From NCBI GenBank assembly GCA_964357975.1, contig CAYHNG010000002.1:4560-68559 (forward strand): DNA of 64,000 nt, written 5' to 3'. Every line of letters begins with the position of its first letter. The stretch's first letter is position 1. Of the stretch, positions 37,760 through 62,280 are shown piece after piece. The position numbers and the translations under genes are program-made. Under the pieces are notes generated by a model. That model saw only the letters and a list, made by a program, of their open reading frames with translations. It made no database searches and was not told the origin of the DNA. The DNA is from an uncultured Pseudomonadales bacterium. Its GTDB lineage: Bacteria > Patescibacteriota > Microgenomatia > UBA1400 > MFAQ01.

Positions 37760-38878
37760 TTGAATATGAAGATAACTGTATTGTCAACCGACTTAAAGAA
37801 ATATCTAGGAATTGTAAATCGAGGTATTGGGGTAAGACCTCAGCTGCCTATTTTGTCGGGTGTTCTTTTGAAAGTGACAAAGGAGGAAGTAAATTTGGTG
37901 TCGACTGACTTGGAAGTAAGTTTTTGGGTGAAACTACCGGCCAAGATAGATGAGGAAGGAGAGATGGTAGTACCGGCAAAGCTTTTTGGAGAATTGGTGG
38001 CCAGTTTGCCGGCTGGAAATGTAACTCTTTCGGCAGAAAAAAACACTTTAACAGTTTCCGCCAAAGGTATTAACGCAGAAGTTGTAGGACAAGGGGTGGA
38101 GGATTTTCCAAGTATTCCTAGAGCCAAAAAACCTCAAATTACCTTAAAGAGTGGAGATTTTAGACAAAAGATGGATCGGGTGTGTATTTCGGCGGCACGT
38201 GATGATACAAGACCGGTCTTGACCGGTGTCTTGTGGGAGTTGGAAGAGAATAAGACTATTTTGGCGGCGACAGATGGATACAGATTGGGAGTTGATAAAT
38301 TAAATGTTGGCAAAACAACTATTGAGAAGAACACCCGTTTTATTTTACCGGCACGATCTCTTCAGGAAATATCCAAAGTCCTGGCTGAGACAGGTGAGGA
38401 TAATTTTGGTATTGAATTTGACAAAGAAAATCAACAGGTGATCTTTACCATTGCCGATATGGAAGTCTCCTCCCGCCTGATTGCAGGCGAGTTTCCGCCC
38501 TATCAACAAATTATGCCGAATACTTACTCAACAAAGGCGGTATTTAACAGGGAAGAGCTACTAGAAGCGGTCAAGAGGGCCAATTTGTTTGCAAGGGACA
38601 ATGCCAATATTGTAAAAATGACCATCGAAGGTGAAAGACTAATTGTGAAAGCGGAAAGTAGTCAGCTTGGAAGCAATTCGACAGAGATCGAAACGGAAAT
38701 TGAAGGAGAAGGTTTGACCGTCGCTTTTAATGCCAGATATCTATTAGATTATCTGGGAGTGAACAATGCGGAGAGAGTGGTTTGGGAGACGGAAGGGGAA
38801 CTCAAACCAAGCGTCTTCAAGAGAGAGGATGATGACGGCTGGATTCAGGTAGTAATGCCGGTTAGGGTGCAGAATTAG
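37760..38878 (+). CDS. dnaN: DNA polymerase III beta sliding clamp
   Basis: MNMKITVLSTDLKKYLGIVNRGIGVRPQLPILSGVLLKV. Confidence 0.85.
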   Translation: MNMKITVLSTDLKKYLGIVNRGIGVRPQLPILSGVLLKVTKEEVNLVSTDLEVSFWVKLPAKIDEEGEMVVPAKLFGELVASLPAGNVTLSAEKNTLTVSAKGINAEVVGQGVEDFPSIPRAKKPQITLKSGDFRQKMDRVCISAARDDTRPVLTGVLWELEENKTILAATDGYRLGVDKLNVGKTTIEKNTRFILPARSLQEISKVLAETGEDNFGIEFDKENQQVIFTIADMEVSSRLIAGEFPPYQQIMPNTYSTKAVFNREELLEAVKRANLFARDNANIVKMTIEGERLIVKAESSQLGSNSTEIETEIEGEGLTVAFNARYLLDYLGVNNAERVVWETEGELKPSVFKREDDDGWIQVVMPVRVQN

Positions 38879-39875
38879 ACCAGGCTTCCGGTGGTAACTG
38901 TAACTGTGGGTAGATCCTGGTGATGGCCTGATCTTTTGAAAGTATCCAAACCAGACCTTTATTTTCCGAGAAAAGCACCATGTCGTTTTTTTGATTTACT
39001 GACGGTTTTATTTTCAGATTTAGTCTATTGATTTGTGAAGAGCTGGTGATAATTTGTTTGAATTGCTGTTTGCCGATATCGACCAACATGATGAAGTCGA
39101 GTAACCTTGGTTTGGTGACTTTTTCGACTAGATATAATTCGTCTTTTAGCCAAAAAGTGATAGATTCTTTGGTCGTATCGTCGAGCTTTATTTTGTTTAA
39201 TCCTTCGATATAAAGATACAAATACTCATTGTCTGTTGCGACGACGACCTTATTGTTTGAAGTGATTGAGATCGGATTGAACTGATTGGCTGTTTTAGCT
39301 ATCTCCGATTTTTGATTAGTGAGAAGGTTAACTACGTATAGTGATTTCTTGTCCTCAGACAAGGCGATAATCGAATTTGGTTTTTCGTACCAAATATAAC
39401 TAAAATACTCTCTTTCTTTTTGAGTGATGTCTTTTTCGACTAGAGTTTTCAAATTTAAAATTTTTTCTTTTTCAGGGGAGATTACCAAAGCCTCGCCATT
39501 GCTATTCAGGAGAGCAACTTCATTATTAGCAAGTTTTTTTATGGCTGTATTTGTGTAGGGGTTAAATATTTGTTGGTCCTTTATGACAATAGGAATATCA
39601 CCCATCCAACCTAATGATATGCTTTTATCTGAATTTGGAAGATGCCAAAACATAAACTGATACTGTTTCATGAACTTTTCAAACTCTGATTCGATTTGCA
39701 TAGTTGGTTGGACGGTAGGTTGCGTTTTTGTAGGTTCTAGAGGCTGGGGCGATGATGAAAATGGTTTGCGACTTTTGGTGAGGGTGTTTTGAGCGAATAG
39801 AATTAGTATGAGGAAGATAATTCCAATTACGATTATTAGCGTGGTTTTTTTGATTCGAGCTAGATTTAAGGACAT
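38862..39875 (-). CDS. Membrane-anchored extracytoplasmic protein; by position a PrgL/VirB8-like candidate
   Basis: N-terminal TM anchor, Pro-rich linker and beta-rich body. Translationally coupled (10-nt overlap) to the upstream hydrolase gene. No diagnostic motif. Confidence 0.35.
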   Translation of the reverse strand: MSLNLARIKKTTLIIVIGIIFLILILFAQNTLTKSRKPFSSSPQPLEPTKTQPTVQPTMQIESEFEKFMKQYQFMFWHLPNSDKSISLGWMGDIPIVIKDQQIFNPYTNTAIKKLANNEVALLNSNGEALVISPEKEKILNLKTLVEKDITQKEREYFSYIWYEKPNSIIALSEDKKSLYVVNLLTNQKSEIAKTANQFNPISITSNNKVVVATDNEYLYLYIEGLNKIKLDDTTKESITFWLKDELYLVEKVTKPRLLDFIMLVDIGKQQFKQIITSSSQINRLNLKIKPSVNQKNDMVLFSENKGLVWILSKDQAITRIYPQLQLPPEAWSNSAP

Positions 39876-42607
39876 TGTTGTTTGACTCGATTAATAAAAT
39901 AATCCAAAAATTCTACACCAGGATCATTCTTTCCCGGTCGTAATTCGTAATGCCCAAAGATCTGAGTGTAGGGAATATGGTACTGCTTCATCATAAAACA
40001 AGTAGAATTGACGGAAGACTGAATTTCTGCTTCACTGGGTGATTTTTCCTCCGGTTTGGTGGGAGATGTTCCGGGCGGAATAAACCAAGCTCCTACCATT
40101 TCATTGTTGAGACAGTAGTTATTTTCATTCCCCCCAACACAGTAGGCGAGCTCCGCCTTCTTTTCCCACATTTGTTGCCATTGCTGAACCGAGCCGTCTT
40201 GGTCGGTGCCAATTTGGCAAGAGAGACCCCTTTCTACAAGGGTATTGTAGGTGACATCATTGTTGGTCCAACCGCCACTCCAGTGGATGGTGATTTTGGT
40301 GGGGATGATACAGTAGCCGGATCTTCCTGGTCCAGTCAGAAGTTTTTTAACTACAGGGAATGATCCTGCCTGTACCATAATTTCGGCACCAGAGTCTTCT
40401 CCACAGTCCAGATTGTATACTCCACCACCAGGTTCTGTTCCTGGTCCCGGTCCACCACCCGGCCCTCCACCACCGCCATATTCTGCATAATCGACCTTAC
40501 TAAGACTATCGAATTGAACAATGGTGGAGAGGATGGGAGCAATTAAATAAGATATGGCAACATAAAGTCCTACGACAATGATAGCTCCGATAATGATACC
40601 TATGGCAGAAATCACGGCAATCTGGACAGATCTTCTGAGAATGATTAGTCCACGTATAAAAGTGGTCCCTGCGGTGACGGCGACCGCTCCTGCAGCAACG
40701 ACGGGAATAATCAAATCTCTAGATCTGAATTTGTCTCCCCAGCCCAGTTCTCTCCAAGTATTATCTAATCCTTTTTTGGCTAGACCGATGGTTTGTTCAG
40801 CAACAAAAATGATGGCTTGAATGGCAACATCAACGATGACTCCTAGTCCGGGAATAATGGCATTGAGAGACTCGGCCGTCACACTAATACCAAGCTTGAC
40901 AGCGGCCCAGGTAACGACTTTGACAGCCGCTTTGGAAAGAGCTTGAGAAGCTAGCTTTTTGACTCCATCTTTAAGACCCTCCCTCAACAACAGGTTAGGG
41001 GCATTTTTGAGAGCCTCACTCCCGAATCTTTCAACCAACCTCTTGGCTATTTGTTCGCCGGCTTTTTTACCGGCCCATTGTTTGAGAGATCCAACCGGGT
41101 TCGTAACTATACCGATGATTTGGTTGCCTTTACTTACAGCCTGAAGAACATCTTTGCCGAGTTTGGAGTTTTCTATCTCACGGATAGAGCGTCTGGCGGC
41201 TTGAAAAACTTTGGTATTGTTGGCGAGAAACTTAGCGGTAGCCGAATTGGGGTTGGTGGTGGCGTATTTTTCGGCTTGGCGAAGAACACTACCGGAAACT
41301 CCTTTGGAATAGGCCAGTATGGCCTGACCTTGACCTCCTCCAATGATGGCGGCGGCTTGGGCACCTTCATAACTGGCATACTGGTGAATTCCGGGAATGT
41401 CTTTTTGAATAACAGTGATCAGTCCGGCGATTTTGTCCAGATCCGAAAAACCTCTGGGTTCGATTCCTTTGCTCTTGAAGGCATTATCGTATAGATTCTC
41501 CTGGATCTTAAAAACTTTGTCGTTAGCAGCATTAGAGAATTCCAAGAGATCCTGGTCTTTTTTTTGATGATCGGCTATTGCCGAAGTGTGTTGTTTGTAT
41601 CTCTCTGATTGGGAGTCAACAAAATCAGTAAACCGGGTGGATGTTTTGTTGAGACTAGAGGTGAGACTAGAGTTGACTTTGAGCAATTCAGCAAGTTGTT
41701 TCTCTTCGGAAGCAGAAAGGGTGGCTTTTGAATGCAGAATATCGATGGCGGCTTCGTTTTGGGACAACTTATCTTCAATGTCTCTGATTTCCAGTTCGAT
41801 ATCATTAATTTCTTCAACTACTTCCGAGACAAAAGAAGTGGAAATATCTTTCACTCCTAGTTGAAGAGAAACTGTTTGAATAGCAACATCAAGATCGATG
41901 ATACCGATGGTGTTTAGTTCGACTGCCTGCGAAATTATTTGGTTTTGAAGATGTGGTGAGAGTTCTTCAAAACCTTCATAGGTAAAGGCTATACGCTGGA
42001 CAGCTTTGTAAGATGGTGCAAGTGTATTTTTTACTGAGCCATCTTTGGGTGAGCCGAGATCAACAATGGTTTTGTCGATATCACGAAATTTTTCTCCCGC
42101 CTCTTCGCGTTCACGGCGATTGGCCATGATTTGTTCGCGGATATTGGAATGAGCGAGAGCAATCTTGACTTGTTCGGCGACGGTGCGTTGACCACTGGAC
42201 TTAACCTCCTTTTCGTTTAACCGAGCTTGATTTTGACGATATTCTTCGACGAGACCTTCAATTTCCGGGGGAACAGAAGTCTCCTCCTTAACAGATTGTC
42301 TTCCTCCTTCTCCCTCGTCCTGATTTGAAAGCCAACTGTAGAAATTGATAATTTCTTGTATTTCAACAGCATCAGAAACAAACTTTTTAAAATTATTGGT
42401 GTTAACTAAATGATTTTCAACCAGAGAAGTGGGCCATAAAGTGATCTTTTTGTTGATCTTCTTAAGTTGTTTGAAATAGTTGTGGTAATAACCAGAGCCG
42501 ACACTAAACCATTGAAAGATATCATTCTGATTTTTTTCGGTTATTTCGCTTCGGAGTGCCTTTTGAACTTGTCCCAGCTCGTATATTTCTGTCTCGTAAT
42601 TGGCCAT
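39866..42607 (-). CDS. PrgK-like T4SS cell-wall hydrolase: long coiled coil, TM segments, Gly/Pro linker, C-terminal amidase_2/PGRP-like domain
   Basis: Central TM helices (VAAGAVAVTAG...IGIIIGAIIVVGLYVAI), a GGGGPGGGPGPG linker, and C-terminal ITIHWSGG...FGHYELRPGKNDPG (amidase_2-like). Sits immediately downstream of VirB4. Confidence 0.5.
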   Translation of the reverse strand: MANYETEIYELGQVQKALRSEITEKNQNDIFQWFSVGSGYYHNYFKQLKKINKKITLWPTSLVENHLVNTNNFKKFVSDAVEIQEIINFYSWLSNQDEGEGGRQSVKEETSVPPEIEGLVEEYRQNQARLNEKEVKSSGQRTVAEQVKIALAHSNIREQIMANRREREEAGEKFRDIDKTIVDLGSPKDGSVKNTLAPSYKAVQRIAFTYEGFEELSPHLQNQIISQAVELNTIGIIDLDVAIQTVSLQLGVKDISTSFVSEVVEEINDIELEIRDIEDKLSQNEAAIDILHSKATLSASEEKQLAELLKVNSSLTSSLNKTSTRFTDFVDSQSERYKQHTSAIADHQKKDQDLLEFSNAANDKVFKIQENLYDNAFKSKGIEPRGFSDLDKIAGLITVIQKDIPGIHQYASYEGAQAAAIIGGGQGQAILAYSKGVSGSVLRQAEKYATTNPNSATAKFLANNTKVFQAARRSIREIENSKLGKDVLQAVSKGNQIIGIVTNPVGSLKQWAGKKAGEQIAKRLVERFGSEALKNAPNLLLREGLKDGVKKLASQALSKAAVKVVTWAAVKLGISVTAESLNAIIPGLGVIVDVAIQAIIFVAEQTIGLAKKGLDNTWRELGWGDKFRSRDLIIPVVAAGAVAVTAGTTFIRGLIILRRSVQIAVISAIGIIIGAIIVVGLYVAISYLIAPILSTIVQFDSLSKVDYAEYGGGGGPGGGPGPGTEPGGGVYNLDCGEDSGAEIMVQAGSFPVVKKLLTGPGRSGYCIIPTKITIHWSGGWTNNDVTYNTLVERGLSCQIGTDQDGSVQQWQQMWEKKAELAYCVGGNENNYCLNNEMVGAWFIPPGTSPTKPEEKSPSEAEIQSSVNSTCFMMKQYHIPYTQIFGHYELRPGKNDPGVEFLDYFINRVKQQCP

Positions 42608-42609
42608 AG

Positions 42610-44514
42610 TTAGGGATTAGATGGCTCGGCGATTTCTTGGGGTTGGTCCTGAGAAGCGGCTTCGGCGGCGGCACGAAGTTTGTCTTGCTTTTGCCGTTCA
42701 AGAATCTCAGCCGGCTTACTGGTAGCCAGAGCGTGTTCATCAGCAGAGGAAATAATTTTGATGGCCACGTGATTCATGCCAGCAAAGAAGATACCTTCTC
42801 CAACGCCGGCCGAAAGAAGTAATTGTTTCTCCCCTTGAGAGAGATAGAAGACTTCGGAGATTTGATTGATAGCGGCGGATGACTGTTTGAGTAGTAATTT
42901 GAGAGCCGAGTTGGTGATGATGGCTTTGCCGTAGGCTGAACCCAGAAAGTCGTCAACGTTTTGTGAAATGATGGAAACACCGAAGTAATACTTACGTGCG
43001 CGTTTGACAAAGCCTTGAAGGATTTTGGCTGAATCTTCATAGCGCATCAAGTACCAAGCTTCATCAACGACGAGCATTCTTTTGCGAAGATTTTTGCGAA
43101 CTTCGTTCCAAACAAAGTCCAAAATCATAAACATAATGATGGGCCGAATCTCATCGGCGGTATCCCGGAGGGTAAAAACAGTAATGGGAGCATTGATATC
43201 AATATTGCTCTGCTGATCGAAGATACCTTTGACGGCACCCATGACGAAACGTTCAAGCCTGGCGGCTAGTGTTTTACTAACAGCTTCTTCCATACCGATC
43301 AGGGAACGATAAAGATCTTCCATGCGTGGTGGTTCGAGAGTGTGAGTGGATGGGTCTTCGGTAATGCCTTTTTGGCGATAAGTGAGAACAAGAGCGCGGT
43401 TCATGGTAGCTTCTTCAATGGGATCCATTTGACCAATCATGATTTTGAGAAGAGACATGAGGAAAAGGTATTTGTAGCCCATTTCGTCTTCGGTACTCTC
43501 TTTGGGTCGAGCAATTTGGAAGGGATTAATTTTGTGGGAGGCGCTGGCCGAAAAAGAGAGGTAGTTACCACCGACCGATTTGGTGACCATTTCGTACTCG
43601 TTTTCAGGGTCGAGAATAATTACCTGGCAATCGAACATAAGAGATCGAAGAATCTCGAGCTTAACAGCAAAAGATTTTCCGGCACCGGAAGTGGCTAAAA
43701 TGAGCATGTTAGCATTTTCGAGGGAGAAACGGTCGAAAATAACGAGAGAGTCGTTATGGGCGTTGATCCCGTAAAGAATTCCTTGATTATCGGAGAGTTC
43801 GGAGGAAGTAAAAGGGAAAGTCGTGGACAGAGCAGTGGTGTCCATATTTCTTGTGAGCATAAGTTTATCCTTGCAATAGGGAAGAGTGCTTTTGAATGCA
43901 TCTTCCATTGAGAGGGATGCAATCTTGCTGATGATTAAAAGTGACGCCAACATAGATTGAATTTGGGCGGTAGAGGTATCCAATTCTTTTTCGGATTCGG
44001 CGGAGATGCTGACATAGAGTGAGAATTGAAAAAACTTCTCGGCGCCTTTGACAAGCTGAGATTGGAGAACTTTGGCGTCTTCGAGACCGGCTTCGGTAGC
44101 GGCACGAGGAATGCGACCTCGTTCGATATCGGTGTTTATTTCAGCTTCCATCTCGGCAATACGGCGGCGTAAACTATCGAGAGTATCTTTGGAGTCTGAG
44201 GGGTAGATAAACATGGAAATGTCCAAAGAGTGGTTGAAGTTGATTAAAGGAGAGAGCCAGTTGGCGGAAACGTAGCGAGGATAACCGGTGACAAAAAGAG
44301 TACGGATATAAACATCGTCAATTTTGATGTGAGAAAAATCGACTTCAACGGCAGAAGGGGCGATAATATCTTGGATAGATTGACTAGAAGCGGCGGATTT
44401 TTGATCTACAGTTGAGGGAGTAGCTTGCGTGACATTAGAAACCGGCGGGGTGACGGGTGTAGAGGTAGCCGGTACGCTTTGTTTTTTGCCAAGAGAAAAA
44501 AGGTTCAAAGCCAT
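42610..44514 (-). CDS. VirB4/PrgJ/TrbE-family T4SS ATPase
   Basis: Walker A ILATSGAGKSFA, ILDPENEY and Walker B MLVVDEAWYLM (the DEAW hallmark), with a VirB4-like N-terminal domain. Confidence 0.75.
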   Translation of the reverse strand: MALNLFSLGKKQSVPATSTPVTPPVSNVTQATPSTVDQKSAASSQSIQDIIAPSAVEVDFSHIKIDDVYIRTLFVTGYPRYVSANWLSPLINFNHSLDISMFIYPSDSKDTLDSLRRRIAEMEAEINTDIERGRIPRAATEAGLEDAKVLQSQLVKGAEKFFQFSLYVSISAESEKELDTSTAQIQSMLASLLIISKIASLSMEDAFKSTLPYCKDKLMLTRNMDTTALSTTFPFTSSELSDNQGILYGINAHNDSLVIFDRFSLENANMLILATSGAGKSFAVKLEILRSLMFDCQVIILDPENEYEMVTKSVGGNYLSFSASASHKINPFQIARPKESTEDEMGYKYLFLMSLLKIMIGQMDPIEEATMNRALVLTYRQKGITEDPSTHTLEPPRMEDLYRSLIGMEEAVSKTLAARLERFVMGAVKGIFDQQSNIDINAPITVFTLRDTADEIRPIIMFMILDFVWNEVRKNLRKRMLVVDEAWYLMRYEDSAKILQGFVKRARKYYFGVSIISQNVDDFLGSAYGKAIITNSALKLLLKQSSAAINQISEVFYLSQGEKQLLLSAGVGEGIFFAGMNHVAIKIISSADEHALATSKPAEILERQKQDKLRAAAEAASQDQPQEIAEPSNP

Positions 44515-44543
44515 GATTTAAGTATAACTGAAGTTAGGAAGTT

Positions 44544-45194: not shown

Positions 45195-45196
45195 GA

Positions 45197-46201: not shown

Positions 46202-46506
46202 GTCGTAGTGCGAAGTGCTTGGTTATTGGTTGCTGGTTCGATGAGTCTAGTTAAGTATATCTTGTCTGGTGGAATTTGGGAAAAATATTCTATATATCTG
46301 CTGAGTTAAAATGTTAAGATGAGAGTGAGATGCAATTTTTGTTGTGCAATTACAGATGGAAAGTTTGGAACAAGTTTTTTTATCGGGAGTTCGATGATGA
46401 TCTGGACTACGATGCATCAATTGATCCTCGCAAACTACATAATAAAAAAAGAACAAAGAAGAAATTTGAGGGGGGGAAAAAGGGAGGAGTTAAACGAGGA
46501 GAAGAG

Positions 46507-52799: not shown

Positions 52800-53072
52800 T
52801 TATTTGCGGTAGATTTCGTCGTGAGTGCCGATATCGAAGAAATATGCTGAACCGTCAGGAAGTATCTTGTATAACATTCTGATGCTTAAATTTGCCGAAA
52901 CACTGTGAGTGTTTGTTAAATGACCTGATAGTTTGTGACCCCGTAAGGACGGATGTTTAGGATTGACGCTGAATATTTGGAGTTGCTTGAGAACTTTATT
53001 GGATAATTTGGAATCATTTCTTTTGATCCTTTTTAACCCAGCTTTGAACTTGGGAGAGAAGGAAATTTCCAT
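52800..53072 (-). CDS. RelE/ParE-superfamily type II toxin
   Basis: 90 aa with a RelE-like ...RGHKLSG...YFFDIGTHDEIYRK C-terminus. Start overlaps the antitoxin stop (ATGA). Confidence 0.6.
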   Translation of the reverse strand: MEISFSPKFKAGLKRIKRNDSKLSNKVLKQLQIFSVNPKHPSLRGHKLSGHLTNTHSVSANLSIRMLYKILPDGSAYFFDIGTHDEIYRK

Positions 53073-53375: not shown

Positions 53376-56300
53376 TTACTGTCCGCAGGAAAAGGTGTGA
53401 TACGGGTCGAGGACGTCTTCTTTGTAAGTATCCAAGGGGGGATATATCCCATTTTTCCCTGTTTCCGGACAATAACCGGCGTAGCTAATGTGACTTTGAA
53501 GAACTGTAGCGTCGGTCCATGCGCTACAAGAACCGGGAATGGAAGTATTGGTCATAGGGAGTTCAAAACAAGTATCGCTGGTAACTGTGGGTGGTAAATA
53601 GGCAGCCCCTCGTGAAAGTGCTTTTGCCGTGGCAGCGGCGGCATCAAGTAAGTTGCATGGAGAGATATTTTCCTTTGTTCTGGTTGGATCGATTTTTTGA
53701 ACGGCGGTCCAATTTGCAATCTCACCTTCTCCTTCCCAAAAGTAATAAGGTCTCCAACCAAATCCGGCTATGGATATATTACATGATCCAGAACTACTGC
53801 AGGCTTCGGCACTATACATAGCCGGGTCACACATTTGTCCGTCTGCAATAGGCATGGCTCCACCGCAGATGGCCCACTCTTTTGCGTTGGCATCGGTCCA
53901 TGTAAGGAATGAACGATTAAAGGCCCCTTCGTGAAGCATGACTGCTAAAACACTAGATGGAGGAACGCTAAAGGTACTTCCTACAGTTTCCAAAATATCT
54001 TGTAAAGTCTTGGGAATTTTTTCAGGAACCTGGCTTTCGTGAACGTAACGAGTGAACTGGGTAATTTTGTCGGTATTACACAACTTGCAGGAACCTCCTT
54101 TGAGAAACGAAAGATCCGTACTACAGACCACTGGCGGAGTGGGAGTAGGGAGGAGGTAACAGCGGGGGGAGTTTTGGAGTTCTTTGGGGACGGTCCAACA
54201 ATTTTGCAGGAGATGCATAGAGTCTTGGGCGAGGTTATTTACTCGATTAATGGGTTCGGCTGGATTGAGGATGTCGGAGTTGCCATTGGGTCCGGTGGAG
54301 GTGGCACCTGCGTCGACACCATCCACACGGTAGGAGACGAAGTGTCTGGCGATGGGAGCGTCGATACTGGCATTGACGGTTTTGTCCACGCCATCCGGGA
54401 GGATCATCTTGTAAAAGGAGTATTGATCGTTGTTGGCAACTGTTTCCTTTATGTCGGTATGTTTGGGATTGTTAAGAACATTTAAGGTTTTACCGTGTGA
54501 AATTCCTTCTACAGTCCATCTCATCCGACAACACTGTCCTGATTTTTGATCTTTATATCTACCCTCCCACTCATTGATGGGACAGACGCCGTACTCGATC
54601 CAACAGTGACCATTATCGTCACATTTTTCTTTTTCGGTTGGTGGATGACATTGGGGGTCGTAGTTCCAGGAAAGTTTGTCGCCCCGAATTGAAAGCACTT
54701 GGTGATGGTCGTCGGCCGGCCTTTGATTTGGATCTCCGCGATCGCCAGCAGCGGTTTTTGGTGCAATTAGATGATAACTGACAGGGAGGGGACAGGTGAT
54801 ATTGGCATAGCCGTCTTTTACTTTTTCATTTAAGTTGTCGATTTCATTTTCGGTATAGCCAACCTTCTTCAATTCGTCGTTGGTAAAGAGATCGGTGACT
54901 TTGTTCCATAGCCAGCCAAAGGGGTTGGTGACGATGGCAATAGTCTCTTCTTTCACTCGTTCCAAAAAGCCTTTCTGGGCAAGTTTTACTTCAGGCAGAG
55001 ACAAAAGAGTGTTTCCGATTCTGTAGTCCGAGATACCACTTGGGCTAGCATATTTATCAACGATCCATTGTGGTTGAAGAGCGGGGAACATGCCAAACTT
55101 GGGTGAAAGTAGCCCTTGGTAGATAGCCCCAACGTAGGGAACACTTTCTCTGGAAACGTTGGTAAGACCAGGTTTATTTGTACCATAACGACCCGCATTG
55201 TCCTCGTCAACCAGATATGGTGCCCAAGGATAATCCCCGTAATACGACTCTTCTTTTTCGTCTTTCTTTTTGACGATGTAACTTCTAGTGCCGTTGAAGT
55301 CTAATGGTACGAAAGCGGCGTATGGACCGTCGAGATCATTGCCAAAGGCACTGATGGCGGCCTCGTAAGCCAAGATTGCAGTGTCGGCAAGAAACCCCAA
55401 GTCCAAATCAAGAGCCAGCTCTCGGAGTTCCTGAAACATGGGCTTCAGAGATTCGGTGGCCTGGGCGTATTCGGGACAGACGGGATAGTCGACAAGACAG
55501 CCAACACGGATAAATGGCCAATGCCAAAAGAGAATTACTTGTTTACTTAGGGCATTGTAGAGTTTTTTAAAGTCGGTTTTCTTCTTGAGACCATTTCGAT
55601 CGACAAAATCGAAGTTAATGTTGTCGATTTGATCTTTGTTGGCCATGTTTAGGACAAATGATCGAAGATTGGCTTGGTTGGAGGCCGGGAGTAGCCGCCA
55701 GTAGGTCCGATAGGCCTCGCGAGTAGGATGACCATCGTTACCGGCATTGTTTTGTGGATCGTAGCTGTCTGAAAGATCCATGGGGCGACCAAAAAGTGAA
55801 GTATAGAGATAATTTTGAGCAATAAAATCAGCTGAGTAACTAGCTTCGGTGTCTGGGCTGGGACCGTAACTGCCGGTTTCGGCTTCGCGGACGTCGGTGT
55901 AGACGAGCATGGCGATGAGACATTCAGGATCTGTTCCTCCTGGTGCAGGTGTTCCGTCCGGCGCTGCCCCACCAACACCGCATTTAGTAAATGGCTGGTC
56001 TATACTTGGAGATAAAGAGTTCTTATATCTCTTGGCAGTGTAATGGGCAATAGGTTCGTAAATACAAGTTCGCTCATACTGCATAATATCTACTTGAGTA
56101 TTTTGAAAGTGATTCCAACAGCTACTGTTTGGTGGAAAAATACCGTTTTGAGACCCCAACTGTTTCCAGCAGTCTTCTGGAACATCTGGGTTGTCTCCGA
56201 TAGGAGTAATGGGGTCGTCAATGATGGATTGAGGTACGCAGTGGAGATCGAGATCCATGGGATACTTGATGCAAACTTCTCCCGCAAGACACATGGTGTT

Positions 56301-56465
56301 GCCACAGGTGACACCAACCGGCGGGCCGGGATTTGGTTCCGATGGAGATGAGGATGGTGAGGGTGATGGTGTAGGTGGTGGTGGAGGGGGGGCGGCTAGA
56401 ATGACCTTATCCAGAAAGAAATATAGAAAAATAAATATTGAGACAATAAAAACAAATTTCTTCAC
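53376..56465 (-). CDS. Large secreted Cys-rich protein (about 1030 aa): poly-Pro linker, Cys-rich domains, C-terminal lysozyme/SLT-like segment (tentative)
   Basis: Start preferred at the GTG at 56465, giving MKKFVFIVSIFIFLYFFLDKVILAA signal peptide then PPPPPPTPSPSPSSSP. The track TTG start at 56561 would overlap pilin gene 1 by 64 nt. C-terminal VLAVMLHEGAFNRSF...GGAMPIADGQ has a weak SLT-like look. Confidence 0.45.
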   Translation of the reverse strand: MKKFVFIVSIFIFLYFFLDKVILAAPPPPPPTPSPSPSSSPSEPNPGPPVGVTCGNTMCLAGEVCIKYPMDLDLHCVPQSIIDDPITPIGDNPDVPEDCWKQLGSQNGIFPPNSSCWNHFQNTQVDIMQYERTCIYEPIAHYTAKRYKNSLSPSIDQPFTKCGVGGAAPDGTPAPGGTDPECLIAMLVYTDVREAETGSYGPSPDTEASYSADFIAQNYLYTSLFGRPMDLSDSYDPQNNAGNDGHPTREAYRTYWRLLPASNQANLRSFVLNMANKDQIDNINFDFVDRNGLKKKTDFKKLYNALSKQVILFWHWPFIRVGCLVDYPVCPEYAQATESLKPMFQELRELALDLDLGFLADTAILAYEAAISAFGNDLDGPYAAFVPLDFNGTRSYIVKKKDEKEESYYGDYPWAPYLVDEDNAGRYGTNKPGLTNVSRESVPYVGAIYQGLLSPKFGMFPALQPQWIVDKYASPSGISDYRIGNTLLSLPEVKLAQKGFLERVKEETIAIVTNPFGWLWNKVTDLFTNDELKKVGYTENEIDNLNEKVKDGYANITCPLPVSYHLIAPKTAAGDRGDPNQRPADDHHQVLSIRGDKLSWNYDPQCHPPTEKEKCDDNGHCWIEYGVCPINEWEGRYKDQKSGQCCRMRWTVEGISHGKTLNVLNNPKHTDIKETVANNDQYSFYKMILPDGVDKTVNASIDAPIARHFVSYRVDGVDAGATSTGPNGNSDILNPAEPINRVNNLAQDSMHLLQNCWTVPKELQNSPRCYLLPTPTPPVVCSTDLSFLKGGSCKLCNTDKITQFTRYVHESQVPEKIPKTLQDILETVGSTFSVPPSSVLAVMLHEGAFNRSFLTWTDANAKEWAICGGAMPIADGQMCDPAMYSAEACSSSGSCNISIAGFGWRPYYFWEGEGEIANWTAVQKIDPTRTKENISPCNLLDAAAATAKALSRGAAYLPPTVTSDTCFELPMTNTSIPGSCSAWTDATVLQSHISYAGYCPETGKNGIYPPLDTYKEDVLDPYHTFSCGQ

Positions 56466-56497
56466 TGAAACTATTATACTTTGTATCGGGTGAGAGT

Positions 56498-56854
56498 TTA
56501 GGTGCCAAATTGGGTAACCTTGGCACCGGTAAAGTTCTCGATGAGAACTAAGGCCAGCCAAACCACCGCGAGGAGAATCAAGCCAATAACGGCCCAGGTA
56601 AACATGGAATAGGCACTGGCGACTGCTTTGGGTTCGGCGCCGGCGGAGATCAAACGAATTCCGGCCATAATGATTATTCCGACAGCAACGAGAGCCAATA
56701 GGGCAGGGATGGGTTGAAGAATGTTTTTAAAGAGACAGGTGATACCTTGTATCGAAGCGACATCGGTAGCATCGACTCCAGCAACATTTTGACCAACACA
56801 TTCTCCAGTCCAATTACTGGCGGCATAGACTTGGGAGACGAGTTGGAAGGACAT
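56498..56854 (-). CDS. VirB2/TrbC-like pilin paralog 1 (divergent, 2 Cys)
   Basis: Leader MSFQLVSQVYAA|S, two hydrophobic helices, loop ISAGAEPKAV. Confidence 0.5.
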   Translation of the reverse strand: MSFQLVSQVYAASNWTGECVGQNVAGVDATDVASIQGITCLFKNILQPIPALLALVAVGIIIMAGIRLISAGAEPKAVASAYSMFTWAVIGLILLAVVWLALVLIENFTGAKVTQFGT

Positions 56855-56903
56855 AAATATATTTTACATTGAATATTTCGGATTGTATATTTTTTTCTTG
56901 GAT

Positions 56904-56997
56904 GGTTCGAAGTGCGCAAAATATCGTACTCGACCTCCGTCCCTCGAGTACGAGTGCGGATCCGCTCCGTGCGAAATTTTGCTTGCCCTTCTGCACC
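56904..56997. repeat. Family-C direct repeat, copy C1 (about 95 bp, nested palindromes)
   Basis: GGTTCGAAGTGCGCAAAATATCGTACTCGACCTCCGTCCCTCGAGTACGAGTGCGGATCCGCTCCGTGCGAAATTTTGCTTGCCCTTCTGCACC, about 93% identical to C2. Contains GTACTCGA...TCGAGTAC and GCAAAAT...ATTTTGC stems. Confidence 0.75.
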
Positions 56998-57027
56998 ATT
57001 TGGTAGTCATAACAAAAACCGCCTGAC

Positions 57028-57086
57028 GGTGGAGTTTTTGTATGAGATTGCTTCAGCTCGAATACGAGATTCGCAATGACGAAGTG
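57028..57086. repeat. Family-A-like repeat, copy A10, with adjacent weak terminator hairpin (3' of pilin gene 2)
   Basis: CCGCCTGACGGTGGAGTTTTTG then GAGATTGCTTCAGCTCGAATACGAGATTCGCAATGACGAAGTG. Confidence 0.5.
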
Positions 57087-57087
57087 C

Positions 57088-57429
57088 TTAGTAAGGTTTG
57101 GGGATGTTGATATTTCCCTCGAAGACGTCGACACCGAAGAAGTAGGCGATGAGTTTCATGAGAGCCCAAGAGGCAGCGACGATAGCGAGACCAACGACGG
57201 CGGCGGTGATACGATTTCTGGCTTGTTCTGTTTTACCTTTATCTCCACCGGAGGTAAGCCATTCAATACCTCCCATGACTAGAAAGGCAAAGGTAAGAAT
57301 ACCGGCTACGATGAAGGCGAGAGAAATGACTCTACTAATAAGAACACCAATGTCGGTGATCTTCATTCCGGTTGGTTGGGGAACTCCAATGGTTCCGGCG
57401 GCGGCATAAGCTTGAGAAATTAGGGACAT
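57088..57429 (-). CDS. VirB2/TrbC-like pilin paralog 2
   Basis: Leader MSLISQAYAAA|G, TM1, loop LTSGGDKGKTEQ, TM2. Confidence 0.55.
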   Translation of the reverse strand: MSLISQAYAAAGTIGVPQPTGMKITDIGVLISRVISLAFIVAGILTFAFLVMGGIEWLTSGGDKGKTEQARNRITAAVVGLAIVAASWALMKLIAYFFGVDVFEGNINIPKPY

Positions 57430-57496
57430 ATTTTTTGGTTTTTTAATAATTATTTATTCTATTACTAATTTAGTATTATACCCGTTATTGAGTTTG

Positions 57497-57856
57497 TCAA
57501 TTGCCGAGAGGATTTTCGGTACACAGAGCATCCAAATTAATTCCGAAAAACTCAAGCACAATCATATAGACCGCATAACTGGAGGCAACGATGGTGAGGC
57601 CAATAAGGGCGGCCGATATCATCTTTTGGGAGGATTCGATCTTACTTTTGTCTCCACCGGAAGTGAGCCACTGGACTCCACCCATGACGAGGTAGACGAA
57701 GAAGGCGACTCCAGAAATAATGAAGGCAGCACTGACTAGATTACTGACGAGATGGCCGATACAGGTATAACCAAAGAAATTATTTTTAGTGGCCATTTCT
57801 CCGATGGGAAGAGTAATATCAGCAGCCAATACCTTAGGAATTATTTTTGGGATCAT
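57497..57856 (-). CDS. VirB2/TrbC-like pilin paralog 3
   Basis: Leader MIPKIIPKVLAA|D, loop LTSGGDKSKIE, 2 Cys. Confidence 0.55.
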   Translation of the reverse strand: MIPKIIPKVLAADITLPIGEMATKNNFFGYTCIGHLVSNLVSAAFIISGVAFFVYLVMGGVQWLTSGGDKSKIESSQKMISAALIGLTIVASSYAVYMIVLEFFGINLDALCTENPLGN

Positions 57857-58203
57857 AAGGCGCTTGGAAATACCGGTTTAAGAATATTAATTTTGAAGAC
57901 TTGTTGGATAAAGTAGGTGACCGCATAAGAGCCGACCAGTATTCCAATGCCGATGACAGAGCTGGTGATTTTTTTTTGAGCATCATCAATTTTGGCCTTG
58001 TCACCTCCGGAGGTAAGATATTCTATACCTCCCCAGACAAGATAAATAATGAAGGCGACTCCTCCAACGGTGATGACTGTCTGCCAAAGAGTGGCAATAT
58101 AAAAGGCAAGACCGCCTCCTGGGTCCTGAGGTATTTTGGGCGACAGTGCCTTATTGACAATTTCGTTGGCGGCAAAAGCAGTAGGTATTATTTGAAAGGC
58201 CAT
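57853..58203 (-). CDS. VirB2/TrbC-like pilin paralog 4
   Basis: Leader MAFQIIPTAFAA|N, loop LTSGGDKAKID. ATGA overlap with paralog 3. Confidence 0.55.
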   Translation of the reverse strand: MAFQIIPTAFAANEIVNKALSPKIPQDPGGGLAFYIATLWQTVITVGGVAFIIYLVWGGIEYLTSGGDKAKIDDAQKKITSSVIGIGILVGSYAVTYFIQQVFKINILKPVFPSAL

Positions 58204-58208
58204 TTTGT

Positions 58209-58577
58209 TTAGAGTTTTAGTGCATCAAATGGATTAAGAATGTCGAGACCGAGAACGGCTCCGACGATGCCAATAATAAAGAAGGAGGCGACGATAGCGA
58301 TAAGGCCAATAGCCGCTTGGGTCATTGAGGTTTGAGCTTCCGAGACCTTTGCCTTGTCTCCACCAGCTGTAATCCATTTTAGACCACCCATGGTGAAATA
58401 GATGACAAAGGCCAAACTGCCGACAACGGTAATGGTGGTGATTAAATTAGAAAGAAATGTTCCCAAACCACTTTGGACACCTCCACTGATGCCTGTTTGA
58501 AAAGGGCCAATTCCTCCAACTTCACTGCCTAGTGGGATATCGGCGGCGGCAAGGGCTGAGGAAATAAATGTCATCAT
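58209..58577 (-). CDS. VirB2/TrbC-like pilin paralog 5
   Basis: Leader MMTFISSALAAA|D, loop ITAGGDKAKVSE. Confidence 0.55.
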   Translation of the reverse strand: MMTFISSALAAADIPLGSEVGGIGPFQTGISGGVQSGLGTFLSNLITTITVVGSLAFVIYFTMGGLKWITAGGDKAKVSEAQTSMTQAAIGLIAIVASFFIIGIVGAVLGLDILNPFDALKL

Positions 58578-58580
58578 AAT

Positions 58581-58946
58581 TTAGATAGATTTTAATTTAG
58601 GAGCCAAGATTGCTCCAAAGTCTCCAAAGAGGACCTTGCTGACGATGGCAATAATTAGGAAACTAGCGGCAATAATGACTAGCCCCACAAGACTCATGGT
58701 GATTTTATTTTGAGCTTCAGTTAGTTTACCTTTGTCTCCACCGGAGGCAATATAGGCAAGTCCACCAGTGAGGAGTTGCCAGAGAGCGAAGACTCCGGCA
58801 ATAACTACAATGAAGCGAACTAGGGCAGAGATGATATCTGTGGTCTGAGTGGTTTCCTTTGGGATGCCTGCGGGAAGGTCGATGGTACCTATTACATTCG
58901 CGGCTAGGGCTGACTTGGCGAATAATGTGTTTAGTATATTGATCAT
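58581..58946 (-). CDS. VirB2/TrbC-like pilin paralog 6
   Basis: Leader MINILNTLFAKSALAA|N, loop IASGGDKGKLTE. Confidence 0.55.
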   Translation of the reverse strand: MINILNTLFAKSALAANVIGTIDLPAGIPKETTQTTDIISALVRFIVVIAGVFALWQLLTGGLAYIASGGDKGKLTEAQNKITMSLVGLVIIAASFLIIAIVSKVLFGDFGAILAPKLKSI

Positions 58947-58949
58947 AAA

Positions 58950-59273
58950 TTAAAAGAATTTAAAGCCAATAATTGCCCCCATAACTCGGGTGATTAGGAA
59001 AGCGAGAACAATGAGGATCAGACCAAGTATTCCATAGTTTAGCATGTTCTGAGCTTGTTCGGTTTTGCCTTTGTCACCACTTGCAGTGATATAGTTGAAA
59101 CCAGCCAGGATAATGACGATAAAGGCCATGACGCCGGAAATTATTAGCACATTGGAGATTAGAGGGTTAATAAGGTTGGCCAATGTGGCCCCACTACCGC
59201 CGACATTCAAGGCTTTGCCTGGAGCATAGAGATTTTCCAACGATTCTGCCGCAAGGACAGTTTTGATAACCAT
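58950..59273 (-). CDS. VirB2/TrbC-like pilin paralog 7
   Basis: Leader MVIKTVLAA|E, loop ITASGDKGKTEQ. Confidence 0.55.
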   Translation of the reverse strand: MVIKTVLAAESLENLYAPGKALNVGGSGATLANLINPLISNVLIISGVMAFIVIILAGFNYITASGDKGKTEQAQNMLNYGILGLILIVLAFLITRVMGAIIGFKFF

Positions 59274-59302
59274 ACTGCCATTTTACAGTAAAATTAGACA
59301 CT

Positions 59303-60415
59303 ATGGAAACAAACAAGCTTGGGCGGTGGGCAAAAGAAAAATTAATCGAACTGGCATCCGAAACAGATGCGAGACTGGAAAAATATTGGGATAAGGAGAT
59401 AAAGAAGGACTTTGGTTTTAACAAAACGCAAAAAGAATTGGTGAGAAAAATGCTTTTGCATGCCAGAGAACACAACCTCAGATCGGCCAAAAGAGCAAGG
59501 GCGGGATTCGTAATTTATGGATATCAGCTGGGCAAAGAACCTGATCACTTAAGGAAGCAAGAACTCAAGACAGAAAAAGAAAAAGTGTGGAGGGCGGCGG
59601 AAGGGATAGAGTTGATTCACACGGCTCTTTTAATGCACGATGATTTTATGGATGGGGATAGGGTAAGGAGAGGAGGTCCGACGACTCAGGAATTTTTTGG
59701 TAAGGTAGACACACATTATGGAGATACGATGGCCATAAATGTCGGTGATGCAATTCTGTGTATGGGGTTTGACAGACTATTGGAGTGTAGCTCCGAGGGA
59801 GAAAAGACCAGACAGGTTATGAAACAGGTGTTCAACGGAATAACTCATACAGCCTTTGGGCAGGCGTATGATCTGAGTTTGCCAAAATTGGGAGAGATGA
59901 CGGAAGAAAAGGTGATGAGTTTGCACAGAGCAAAAACAGCTATTTATACTTACGAGAACCCATTATTGATTGGTGGAATTCTGGCTGGATTAACAAAAGA
60001 GGTTTTGGAAATCTTGCGAGATTATGCCACCGATGGAGGAATTGCGTTCCAGCTGCAAGACGACATTTTAGGTGTTTATGGGAACGAGGAAAAAACCGGA
60101 AAATCAATTAACTCGGATTTATTGCAGGGCAAGGTAACCCTTTTGGTAGTTAAAGTGATGGAAACGGGGACAAGGCAACAAAAAGAAAACTTGTTGAGAA
60201 TATGGGGAAAAAAGCAGGCGGAGACAAAAGATATCGATGCGGCGAAAGAAGCAATCAGAGATAGTGGGGCATATATGTATTCGGTAAAGGTGGCGAGAGA
60301 GTTGGCCGAGAAATCGGCTCGGACAACAAACAGATTGCGGGGGAAAGGATTAAACGATGAAGCAATTAACTATTTGGAAGGGATTGCGAGGTATATGGTG
60401 GAGAGAGAGGTTTAG
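59303..60415 (+). CDS. trans-Isoprenyl diphosphate synthase (polyprenyl synthetase family)
   Basis: FARM LMHDDFMDGDRVRRG and second Asp-rich region FQLQDDILGVYG. Confidence 0.8.
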   Translation: METNKLGRWAKEKLIELASETDARLEKYWDKEIKKDFGFNKTQKELVRKMLLHAREHNLRSAKRARAGFVIYGYQLGKEPDHLRKQELKTEKEKVWRAAEGIELIHTALLMHDDFMDGDRVRRGGPTTQEFFGKVDTHYGDTMAINVGDAILCMGFDRLLECSSEGEKTRQVMKQVFNGITHTAFGQAYDLSLPKLGEMTEEKVMSLHRAKTAIYTYENPLLIGGILAGLTKEVLEILRDYATDGGIAFQLQDDILGVYGNEEKTGKSINSDLLQGKVTLLVVKVMETGTRQQKENLLRIWGKKQAETKDIDAAKEAIRDSGAYMYSVKVARELAEKSARTTNRLRGKGLNDEAINYLEGIARYMVEREV

Positions 60416-60428
60416 AGTCTCACTTTTC

Positions 60429-60523: not shown

Positions 60524-60784
60524 TCGTTCGACAATACCTAATGTGACAAAGGTGAGAGTGTTTGGGAGAAAGGGTGTCCTAAGATTTATTTTATGGAAAT
60601 ACCCAGACATTGGCGCGAACAGCCAACGAGGATGAGATTTGATGGATCAGAGAAAAACTTAAAAGATTCAGAAATGAGAGTGTTTAAGTATCCCGGGGGG
60701 TCTATCCCATTAGTAGGTGATTATCAGCAGATTCGACAGCGATTTGAGAAAAGAGGTTTTAGTGAAGAAGCAACAGAGGAAATT

Positions 60785-61495
60785 TTATTTCGACTTTGGG
60801 GTGGAATCCCCGCCGAAGCGGCGATCTCTTTGGGTGAAGTCGTCAATAGCTTTCATGAATTGGTCGGGAGTGAAATCGGGGAATAAGGTAGGAGTGAAGT
60901 AAAGTTCCGAGTAGACACTTTGCCAGGGTAGGTAACCCGAGGTACGGCGTTCTCCACCGGTACGGATAACTAGGTCGGGGTCGGGCATACCGGCGGTGTC
61001 CAGGTAAGATGAAAAAATTTCTTCATTTATATTGTTTGCGGGAATCTGGTCGTTGATGATTTTTTTGATTGCACGAATGATTTCGTCCCGACCACCATAA
61101 TTAAGAGCAAAGGAGACAGTAATTTTATTGTTTTTGGAGGACTTAGAGATCATTTCCATTGATTTTTTGGCAATATCTTCAGGGAAACGGCTCATGTCAC
61201 CTAATATTTGTAGCTTTGCTCCTCGCTTAATAAATCTGAGAGCAAGGGCTCCAAAGGCAATTCGAAATATATCTAAAATCCCCCTGACTTCTTTTTCGTC
61301 TCTTTTCCAATTTTCGGTAGAGAAGGCCCAAAAGGTCACATAGGGGATACCCAGATCGACACATTTTTCGATCAGAGGTTCAATGGTGTGGTTGGCGGCG
61401 TATTCGTGACCTTTGACAGGTTCCAAACCTTGTTTTTTTGCCCAACGACGGTTGCCATCCATCATGATCGCAATATGTTTTAGTGGAAGTTCCAT
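60785..61495 (-). CDS. uppS: Undecaprenyl diphosphate synthase (cis-prenyltransferase)
   Basis: MMDGNRRWA and YVTFWAFSTENWKR motifs. Confidence 0.85.
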   Translation of the reverse strand: MELPLKHIAIMMDGNRRWAKKQGLEPVKGHEYAANHTIEPLIEKCVDLGIPYVTFWAFSTENWKRDEKEVRGILDIFRIAFGALALRFIKRGAKLQILGDMSRFPEDIAKKSMEMISKSSKNNKITVSFALNYGGRDEIIRAIKKIINDQIPANNINEEIFSSYLDTAGMPDPDLVIRTGGERRTSGYLPWQSVYSELYFTPTLFPDFTPDQFMKAIDDFTQRDRRFGGDSTPKSK

Positions 61496-61521
61496 GCAGG
61501 TATAAATTATACCAAAAGAGG

Positions 61522-61860
61522 CTAAACAATATTGCCCAGTCCTAAAAAGTTGGTAATGACACGTACAACTAGATAAGCGGTAAATACCATAATGAGACCG
61601 ATAAAGCTGTTTAATAGTCTTGTTGTAGCACTAGCTACCCTTTTCGGGTCCCCTGAGCTCATCATGTATTCCCAGCCGGCCATGACGAGATTAGCAAAAA
61701 AGAGAAGACCAACAATGACGAAAACAAGGGTGAGAAGGTCTTTTGATAATACACTACCAAGATCGGTGAATTTGTTGATTCCAACGACCTGGTTGATACT
61801 GTTTTCTAACCCCGTAATGTCTACTTCGTCAGCTGCCAGAACCAGATTGATTAATGACAT
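61522..61860 (-). CDS. VirB2/TrbC-like pilin paralog 8
   Basis: Leader MSLINLVLAA|DE, loop MMSSGDPKRVAS. Confidence 0.5.
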   Translation of the reverse strand: MSLINLVLAADEVDITGLENSINQVVGINKFTDLGSVLSKDLLTLVFVIVGLLFFANLVMAGWEYMMSSGDPKRVASATTRLLNSFIGLIMVFTAYLVVRVITNFLGLGNIV

Positions 61861-61863
61861 AGT

Positions 61864-62280
61864 TTATTTTAGACCGGGAAGGCTAAGAATGTTAACTCCA
61901 ATAAGTCTTAATAAAAAGACGGAAAGGATAATAAAAATTAGACCGGAAATGGCGGAAGTGATAATCTCTTGACCCTCTTTCAGCTTATCGGGAATGCCGG
62001 CTGAGGTAGTGATGATAAAGACTCCAAAGAGCATGAGAATAAGAGCTAGTCCACCCCCAAGACCAACGGCGATCTTGAAGACTGAAGTAAAAAATGACGC
62101 CCCACCGGTTTCGACTGAAGTTGATATGCAACCAAGAGCAGTATTCACTTCGTCAGTACCACATCCTGTGCTTGGACCAACAAAAGCAGCGTGTGTGGAA
62201 TGTGGGGATAGAACAATCAGTGAAACAAGAAATATGAATATGAAGTATACGAGGCTTCTCATGTAGGGTAATTTTAACAT
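61864..62280 (-). CDS. VirB2/TrbC-like pilin paralog 9 (divergent: classical signal peptide, Cys pair)
   Basis: Signal peptide ...LSPHSTHA|AF, GCGTDEVNTALGC, two hydrophobic helices with loop TTSAGIPDKLKEGQE. Confidence 0.45.
   Translation of the reverse strand: MLKLPYMRSLVYFIFIFLVSLIVLSPHSTHAAFVGPSTGCGTDEVNTALGCISTSVETGGASFFTSVFKIAVGLGGGLALILMLFGVFIITTSAGIPDKLKEGQEIITSAISGLIFIILSVFLLRLIGVNILSLPGLK

Follow-up and report, generated by a model that had tools for sequence, protein, structure and literature searches.

The 64,000-nucleotide stretch analysed here (contig CAYHNG010000002.1, positions 4,560 to 68,559; hereafter the window) carries a locus for a type IV secretion system (T4SS) directly beside dnaN, and this position raises the question of whether the locus is an integrative conjugative element (ICE) or an apparatus fixed in the chromosome, and of what such an apparatus would transfer. 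The original prediction, whose open reading frames (ORFs) were all found where it had placed them, favoured a fixed system of the Gram-positive type. The results of the present analysis suggest, with a probability of about 80%, that the locus is a vertically inherited chromosomal T4SS of the Patescibacteria type, derived from the MPF-FATA class; this figure covers the identity and the architecture of the system.

The evidence for the type of the system comes from the core operon on the minus strand (Table 1). The best and sole above-cut-off NCBIfam model for the VirB4-family ATPase was that of the Clostridioides CD1110 family (NF045971, 'VirB4-like, CD1110 family'), which scored 360.5 bits against a curated cut-off of 325 and was matched over profile positions 178–733 of 752. 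The Pfam families P-loop_TraG (3.8e-27), AAA_10 and CagE_TrbE_VirB were matched as well, and the Walker A (ATSGAGKS) and Walker B (MLVVDEAW) motifs are intact, the latter including the predicted DEAW. The adjacent upstream gene had been listed as a small hypothetical one, and its product proved to be a homologue of TrsD and of the N-terminal domain of VirB4, covering positions 13–138 of the CD1110 VirB4 profile at a sub-threshold score. Because the products of the TrsD-like gene and virB4 match successive parts of this profile, the two genes together represent one split VirB4. The comparison set consisted of 70 related loci from GTDB species genomes, down to 42% VirB4 identity, and detailed gene maps were drawn for 13 loci; the TrsD-like gene lies beside virB4 in 62 of the 70 loci, and TrsD is reported to be the most abundant T4SS component in Patescibacteria (PMC12102498). 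The PrgI/VirB3-like protein predicted upstream of these genes scored above the cut-off of its Pfam family. The intergenic gaps of −10, 2, 29 and 2 nt, the last two on the TrsD/PrgI side, indicate one translationally coupled operon. Thus, with a CD1110-type VirB4, PrgI and a TrsD-like protein encoded upstream and a membrane-anchored hydrolase encoded downstream, assignment to the Gram-positive MPF-FATA type is supported by the sequence matches.

The hydrolase encoded after virB4 shows the coiled-coil, transmembrane (TM) and amidase parts that had been predicted: a long coiled-coil region in the cytoplasm is followed by four predicted TM helices, and behind a Gly-rich linker the Amidase_2 domain forms the C-terminus. 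Conservation among 33 members of this family, one of them the window protein, lies in the TM region and the segment preceding it, and the C-terminal domain is Peptidase_M23 in 25 members, Amidase_2 in two, CHAP in one and Peptidase_C39_2 in one. Judging from these domain assignments, the cell-wall-hydrolase role of VirB1/PrgK is filled by interchangeable C-terminal enzyme modules.

The last gene of the operon encodes a membrane-anchored protein with one TM helix, as predicted, though its proposed equivalence to PrgL was not supported. This 337-aa protein matched no Pfam or NCBIfam family, its sequence type is present only in the two closest relatives, and alignment with the proteins that occupy this place in other Collierbacteria revealed no homology (hhalign probability 16%); the analogy to PrgL/VirB8 is therefore one of position only. 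The position itself is constant, with a single-TM protein of 146–371 aa at the end of the operon in 13 of 13 mapped loci, and a PDB profile search with these proteins of other loci returned noise only. At the other end of the operon, the PrgI/VirB3-like protein continues after its TM helices with a Pro/Thr-rich linker and a C-terminal module of ~90 aa (residues ~245–334), which may resemble a transthyretin-like beta-sandwich at sub-threshold scores (CarboxypepD_reg, 0.0078; NOMO1-like, 0.0045). The same module recurs C-terminally in an unrelated 363-aa protein of a Shapirobacteria locus (L029:1878-2969), and it thus appears to be mobile and extracellular.

The polytopic protein predicted to be VirB6-like could be placed by fold and not by sequence profile. 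The 612-aa product, which with its likely true start (M19 at 52677) has 594 aa and is identical to database protein P0011, had no Pfam or NCBIfam match and no TrbL/VirB6 or PrgH profile match. Pfam scans of 24 homologues and a PDB sequence-profile search were also blank, and none of its 155 matches among 5.8 billion proteins carries a Pfam domain. An AlphaFold2 model built with 66 homologues had a pLDDT of 74.6, with more than 85 in the membrane core, and the top ranks in Foldseek were five chains of the R388 VirB5–VirB6 stalk complex, though these matches were weak (E 0.02–0.28, TM-score ≤0.36). A VirB6-like fold, that is, a polytopic helical bundle as in TrwI and DotA, is accepted for the modelled protein at the level of fold only, and membership of the VirB6/TrbL sequence family is rejected because every sequence-based route was blank. 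Profile searches were significant for the VirB4, PrgI and VirB2 families of the locus and not for VirB6.

Between the VirB6-like gene and the pilin genes lies the gene for the large Cys-rich secreted protein that had been predicted, with a likely start at 56465 that gives 1,029 aa. It occupies this position in most Collierbacteria-like loci whose flank extends that far. The family comprises ~40 proteins without a Pfam domain, and the enrichment of lytic transglycosylases and lysozymes among its weak matches is only a hint of a possible lysozyme-like domain.

Nine VirB2-like pilins had been predicted, and nine ORFs match T4SS_pilin (PF18895), a family derived from the candidate phyla radiation (CPR); eight of them reach or exceed the gathering score, and the ninth falls below it. 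The array lies 12–18 kb from virB4. Each pilin has two hydrophobic/TM helices and a conserved SGGDKxK loop, and pairwise identity is 13–42% (mean 27%), while published arrays contain 2–11 genes with a mean identity of 25% (PMC12102498). In eight of the nine, the N-terminal leader is very short, M-x(6-16)-[LYF]AA, with an n-region free of positive charge, unlike in classical VirB2/TrbC pilins, which have long leaders of the Sec type; the signal peptide of the ninth (61864–62280) is longer and looks conventional. The array is broken between pilins 7 and 8 by two housekeeping genes for isoprenoid synthesis, polyprenyl (diphosphate) synthetase and UppS, which are not part of the core machine. Three further ORFs in this region (56814–57134, 62153–62410 and 62414–62698) were judged spurious, having no matches and overlapping real genes or the plus-strand gene that starts at 62301.

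Table 1. Positions of the T4SS genes, the origin region and other features in the window
Feature	Positions	Strand	Evidence or remarks
VirD4/TraD-like P-loop ATPase with C-terminal NUDIX, 1,159 aa, soluble	12082–15561	−	TrwB_AAD_bind 4e-5; TraG-D_C; T4SS-DNA_transf; NUDIX 2.7e-8
DUF4012-domain protein, 907 aa	26756–29479	−	
RNase H/RVT_3 protein	29719–30156	−	
Bro-N domain protein	33472–34185	−	
dnaA (context marker only)	35697–37235	+	Bac_DnaA 1.5e-60; Bac_DnaA_C 3.9e-24
oriC-like region	37236–37550		DnaA-box cluster and AT-rich stretch
dnaN (context marker)	37760–38878	+	Three DNA_pol3_beta domains
337-aa protein, one N-terminal TM helix, last operon gene	38862–39875	−	TM prediction
913-aa cell-wall hydrolase	39866–42607	−	Amidase_2 at residues 770–897, E 8e-8 (4.9e-9 for the domain alone)
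VirB4-family ATPase without N-terminal domain	42610–44514	−	NF045971; P-loop_TraG
TrsD-like protein, 216 aa	44544–45194	−	NF041427 TrsD 1.5e-5, sub-threshold
PrgI/VirB3-like	45197–46201	−	PF12666 36.1 bits (cut-off 27); two TM helices
749-aa soluble protein, no family	46330–48579	+	Motifs YSDADGE, TVDSGG, VDHHG
756-aa acidic soluble protein, basic C-terminal tail	48616–50886	+	Collierbacteria-restricted family
VirB6-like polytopic membrane protein, ~8–10 TM helices	50893–52731	−	Fold comparison
RelE/YafQ-like toxin, insertion outside core	52800–53072	−	TIGR02385 26.1 bits (cut-off 27.9); YafQ 1.8e-4
Putative antitoxin, 84 aa	53072–53326	−	Position only; 1 nt overlap with toxin
Cys-rich secreted or anchored protein, 33 Cys	53376–56561	−	N-terminal hydrophobic anchor/signal
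Seven tandem VirB2-like pilin genes	56498–59273	−	PF18895 26.7–37.8 bits
Pilins 1–7	56498–56854, 57088–57429, 57497–57856, 57853–58203, 58209–58577, 58581–58946, 58950–59273	−	
Polyprenyl (diphosphate) synthetase	59303–60415	+	
UppS	60785–61495	−	
Two further pilin genes	61522–61860, 61864–62280	−	PF18895 41.0 bits; 20.0 bits (below cut-off)
Secreted SpoIID-domain protein, at least 566 aa	62301–64000 (continues past window end)	+	Signal peptide; coiled-coil region; SpoIID 9.1e-15

Whether such a locus is inherited with the chromosome was addressed by gene order. All of the 70 related loci came from Patescibacteria-type metagenome-assembled genomes (MAGs), which would fit a place of the window VirB4 within the Patescibacteria clade. 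The genes found in the same order beside dnaN/dnaA were virB4, the TrsD-like gene (62 of 70), prgI (about 50), the hydrolase gene (33) and the VirB6-like gene (26). In Collierbacteria-like MAGs, the order dnaA–dnaN–operon is conserved across 51–96% VirB4 identity, and synteny from dnaA through the pilin genes was found wherever the flanks were covered; in MAGs labelled Shapirobacteria and Paceibacteria, the virB4/TrsD-like genes lie less than 10 kb from dnaA/dnaN. This conserved order indicates vertical inheritance and not an ICE, in agreement with the fixed chromosomal position that had been proposed. Between the window and the two nearest genomes with a full locus, identity is 92–97% for VirB4 and TrsD, 33–62% for the hydrolase, 54–75% for the Cys-rich protein and 48–63% for the embedded soluble proteins, a gradient from a conserved ATPase to divergent surface and soluble proteins that would fit an arms race at a host interface.

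An ordinary ICE or ICE remnant inserted beside dnaN, with conjugation as its function, is highly improbable in view of this order, which argues strongly against it. The VirB4 match to a model built from conjugative elements (CD1110), the toxin–antitoxin pair within the locus and a VirD4-like ATPase elsewhere in the window would speak for such an element. Nevertheless, no relaxase, integrase, Rep or recombinase domain was found in any ORF of at least 100 aa in the window, consistent with the predicted lack of relaxase and integrase, and the GC content shows no step at the locus borders. The toxin–antitoxin pair is itself a local insertion, since the toxin gene was matched in just one other locus. 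The pair had been named a RelE/DinJ module; the RelE/YafQ-like toxin was found just below its cut-off, and the DinJ assignment was not supported, as no DinJ or other family match was obtained for the putative antitoxin in Pfam and NCBIfam profile scans. Scans for promoters and terminators did not exceed what shuffled sequence would give and were not used, apart from a strong −35/−10 match in a promoter-like site upstream of the antitoxin gene (53361–53333). The other 35 kb of the window contain housekeeping and cell-envelope genes, including those for GAPDH, PGK, GroEL, LeuRS, YidC, TsaD, L25, RNase H and a solute-binding protein.

The VirB4-like protein is 95–96% identical to proteins of Candidatus Collierbacteria MAGs (MFAS01000001, LCIE01000011 and UBA12020), and exact copies of two window proteins occur on contigs of 0.1-µm-filtered Hainich groundwater assemblies. 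Judging from these identities, the source is the genome of a groundwater Candidatus Collierbacteria (Microgenomatia/OP11, Patescibacteria), in line with the CPR-like genome that had been proposed. The predicted vicinity of oriC was also borne out: the order is rpmH–rnpA (minus strand), dnaA, DnaA boxes and dnaN, with four DnaA-box 9-mers (≤1 mismatch; 23 in the whole window) within the 81 bp at 37236–37316, followed by an AT-rich stretch at ~37500–37545. The locus had been thought to start 0.1 kb past dnaN; instead, dnaN (stop at 38878) and the last operon gene (stop at 38862) are convergent and overlap by 17 bp. Cumulative GC skew climbs steadily over the window (1–64000) and has no minimum at the dnaA/DnaA-box region (37236–37550), which matches the strand-wide G/C disparity reported as a trait of Collierbacteria and relatives and attributed to replication that runs mostly in one direction (PMC7143001). 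With forks moving rightwards from 37.3 kb, the T4SS locus would be replicated first and its minus-strand genes would be transcribed head-on to the fork. Such a reading is relevant to the published idea of a gene-dosage effect for T4SS genes near the origin.

Two genes embedded between prgI and the VirB6-like gene lie, as a correction to the original prediction, on the strand opposite to the operon and encode soluble proteins that belong to no family. Neither had a significant PDB match, as single sequence or profile, or a credible Pfam match. The 749-aa protein has three homologues besides itself among 5.8 billion sequences, all of which keep its motifs as YSD[AL]DG, [TN][VM]D[ST]G and DHHG. 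By eye, these motifs seem to resemble motifs I–III of DHH phosphoesterases, though neither Pfam nor PDB profiles back the likeness, and the C-terminal third of the protein is shared with sister-genome proteins that lack the DHH-like domain. In a set of 1.84 billion proteins, only 26 representative clusters belong to the family of the 756-aa protein. Its gene keeps its place between prgI and the VirB6-like gene, and the family profile finds very remote members there in further loci. The last 30 residues in this family have a mean net charge of +3.9, compared to −0.4 in 176 acidic background ORFs (Mann–Whitney p = 2.5e-9, a value that overstates independence because the family members are mutually related). 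The tail has a conserved Trp and is rich in Arg/Lys, which recalls the C-terminal signals that direct VirB/D4 substrates to translocation. Other matches of the 756-aa protein were set aside: some, such as that to fructose-1,6-bisphosphatase (E 0.0032), are at chance level, and that to AhpC-TSA_2 (E 7e-4) was rejected as chance, being below the cut-off and found in one of 20 family members. The two embedded proteins showed no significant mutual similarity in BLASTP and one weak profile cross-match (2.3e-5). In 12 of the 13 mapped loci, 11 of them with a VirB6-like gene, the corresponding position holds one or two opposite-strand soluble ORFs of 382–966 aa, mostly above 650 aa. We regard the two proteins as leads, not findings. 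It is possible, though unlikely, that they are substrates or effectors of the T4SS or substrate-processing factors, in which case the basic tail would act as a VirB/D4-like signal and the DHH-like protein might be an enzyme acting on host or imported nucleic acids or nucleotides.

Systems of this kind have been described before. Quinonero-Coronel et al. (2025; PMC12102498) reported that monoderm-type T4SSs with VirB2-like pilin arrays and without relaxase, located beside dnaA/dnaN/rnpA, are widespread in Patescibacteria, including Microgenomatia, in which VirB6 was found to be 'scarce' and extreme divergence was suggested. Southlakia epibionticum requires a homologous cluster (SEML1_0006-0019) to grow as an epibiont (Wang et al., 2023; PMC10633639); that T4SS has no recognisable relaxase or type IV coupling protein (T4CP) and is dispensable for the supply of nucleotides linked to competence (PMC10633639, PMC12857230). 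A 2025 nomenclature review treats these systems as a new T4SS type, the pilus being speculated to serve as a conduit for host exchange (PMC12857230). The window locus shares with this clade an MPF-FATA VirB4, an adjacent TrsD-like protein, PrgI/VirB3, a hydrolase right after virB4, a VirB6-like protein, tandem divergent PF18895 pilins, the lack of a relaxase and the chromosomal position beside dnaA/dnaN/rnpA. It differs in that the Collierbacteria VirB6-like protein is visible by fold and not by sequence, and in that the hydrolase carries Amidase_2, while most orthologues carry Peptidase_M23. Furthermore, one or two lineage-only divergent acidic soluble proteins and a Cys-rich secreted protein of ~1,000 aa are added, and the toxin–antitoxin pair and the two isoprenoid genes are inserted.

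With Gram-positive T4SSs (pCF10 Prg/Pcf, pIP501, CTn2/CD1110 and pGO1), the locus has in common the order prgI (VirB3)–virB4–membrane-anchored hydrolase, a TrsD-like protein (as in pGO1), a VirB6-type polytopic protein and the lack of outer-membrane core components. Compared to pCF10, however, the relaxase (PcfG), oriT, an adjacent membrane T4CP (PcfC) and a PrgB-type adhesin are missing, and the hydrolase is of the Amidase_2 type instead of the SLT and CHAP domains of PrgK, its orthologues mostly having Peptidase_M23 and one CHAP. In contrast to the Gram-positive conjugative systems, VirB4 is split in two genes, VirB2-like pilins, which those systems lack, are present, and the locus is chromosomal and vertically inherited. 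Unlike R388 Trw and Agrobacterium VirB, it includes no VirB7, VirB9, VirB10 or VirB11 homologue and no recognisable VirB5, and its host has a single membrane. Tandem divergent virB2 paralogues in a T4SS for host interaction are shared with Bartonella and Anaplasma, though those are Gram-negative systems of the VirB/D4 type whose effectors and coupling proteins are known, whereas the target of the window system would be another bacterium.

On the basis of established T4SS biology, we propose the following scenario for the working of the machine. PrgI/VirB3 may anchor the TrsD–VirB4 ATPase at the membrane, the VirB6-like protein may form a membrane channel or the base of a stalk, and the amidase of the modular hydrolase may open the cell wall locally. 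Driven by VirB4, the VirB2-like pilins would then polymerise into a pilus or conduit extending to the host cell. Adaptation to different host surfaces would come from the divergence of the many pilins, from the rapid evolution of the hydrolase and from the Cys-rich surface protein. The machine would move proteins or other molecules between epibiont and host and would not conjugate DNA. The chances that its function is such a transfer of protein or other non-DNA cargo are about even.

Two other functions have to be weighed against this transfer. The locus might mainly encode a device for pilus assembly and adhesion, in which VirB4 builds a VirB2 pilus for host attachment and no substrate is translocated. 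Much of the locus consists of the nine pilin genes, the gene for a large Cys-rich surface protein adjoins them, and a typical membrane-anchored T4CP is missing from the locus, all of which would suit adhesion. However, conservation together with the ATPase extends to a VirB6-fold protein and a cell-wall hydrolase, Saccharibacteria already adhere via type IV pili (PMC12857230), and the embedded acidic proteins, with their basic C-terminal tails, have the look of candidate substrates; adhesion as the main function is unlikely. Rather improbable, too, is a machine for the import of DNA or nucleotides, similar to the archaeal Ced or Helicobacter ComB systems, which would feed a genome unable to make nucleotides. 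Patescibacteria are generally without nucleotide synthesis (PMC10633639), the 749-aa protein has DHH-like motifs such as typify nucleases of the RecJ/NrnA type, the distant VirD4-like ATPase carries a fused NUDIX hydrolase, and VirB4 weakly matches CedB (60.7 bits, 1e-16) and CedD (21.9 bits). These Ced scores, however, are far below the cut-offs of 700 and 600 bits, respectively, and the DHH-like domain, seen by eye, does not occur in the related proteins that most sister genomes encode. In addition, S. epibionticum remains viable when loss of ComEC abolishes DNA uptake, whereas its T4SS is essential (PMC12857230), which separates the essential role of the T4SS from ComEC-dependent DNA uptake.

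Several points weigh against the interpretation of the locus as a Patescibacteria-type chromosomal T4SS for non-DNA cargo. The relaxase search covered 64 kb of the genome, the T4SSs of Microgenomatia are known from genes alone, and no VirB8-like component could be shown by profile and PDB-profile searches. Furthermore, the absence of a coupling-type ATPase that the original prediction implied is contradicted by a sub-threshold VirD4/TraD-like gene, overlooked earlier, which lies in the window at a distance of 27 kb from the T4SS locus. Since this ATPase is present, a missing coupling protein cannot be used as an argument against transfer of DNA or nucleoprotein. The protein matches the CD1115 VirD4-like model far below its cut-off (2.1e-6) and has a Walker A motif (GKSGTGKS) and no TM helix. 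Its NUDIX domain is RppH-like, and the fusion of a coupling-protein-like ATPase to NUDIX is an unusual architecture. It may or may not be functionally linked to the T4SS locus; Patescibacteria have thousands of distant T4CP homologues, and that of S. epibionticum is not essential (PMC12102498).

Some neighbouring genes are recorded here as context. Among the housekeeping genes left of rnpA are those for a protein with a Bro-N domain, which is often phage-associated, and for an RNase H/RVT_3 protein. The GC content dips locally to 0.39 around 28–30 kb, near the DUF4012 gene. On the right, the SpoIID-domain gene is divergent from the last pilin gene.

The kind of locus, its position at dnaA/dnaN, the pilin arrays and the lack of a relaxase were already published in 2023–2025, and the window leaves the overall picture unchanged, adding one more well-preserved example from Microgenomatia. 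New in the present study are the fold-level assignment of VirB6 in Microgenomatia, the swapping of hydrolase domains among orthologues and the lineage-specific family of acidic soluble proteins with basic tails. The locus is thus of value as an annotated reference for a class in which surveys with hidden Markov models found VirB6 'scarce': it supplies a candidate VirB6 family, at the level of fold, of ~155 proteins that are all now labelled 'hypothetical', evidence that the hydrolase after virB4 is modular, and two lineage-specific families of embedded proteins with which a search for substrates could reasonably begin. Few machines have been shown to be essential to CPR bacteria for life as epibionts, and the patescibacterial T4SS is among them; if the embedded proteins are indeed effectors, the function of this essential but unexplained machine would become testable.

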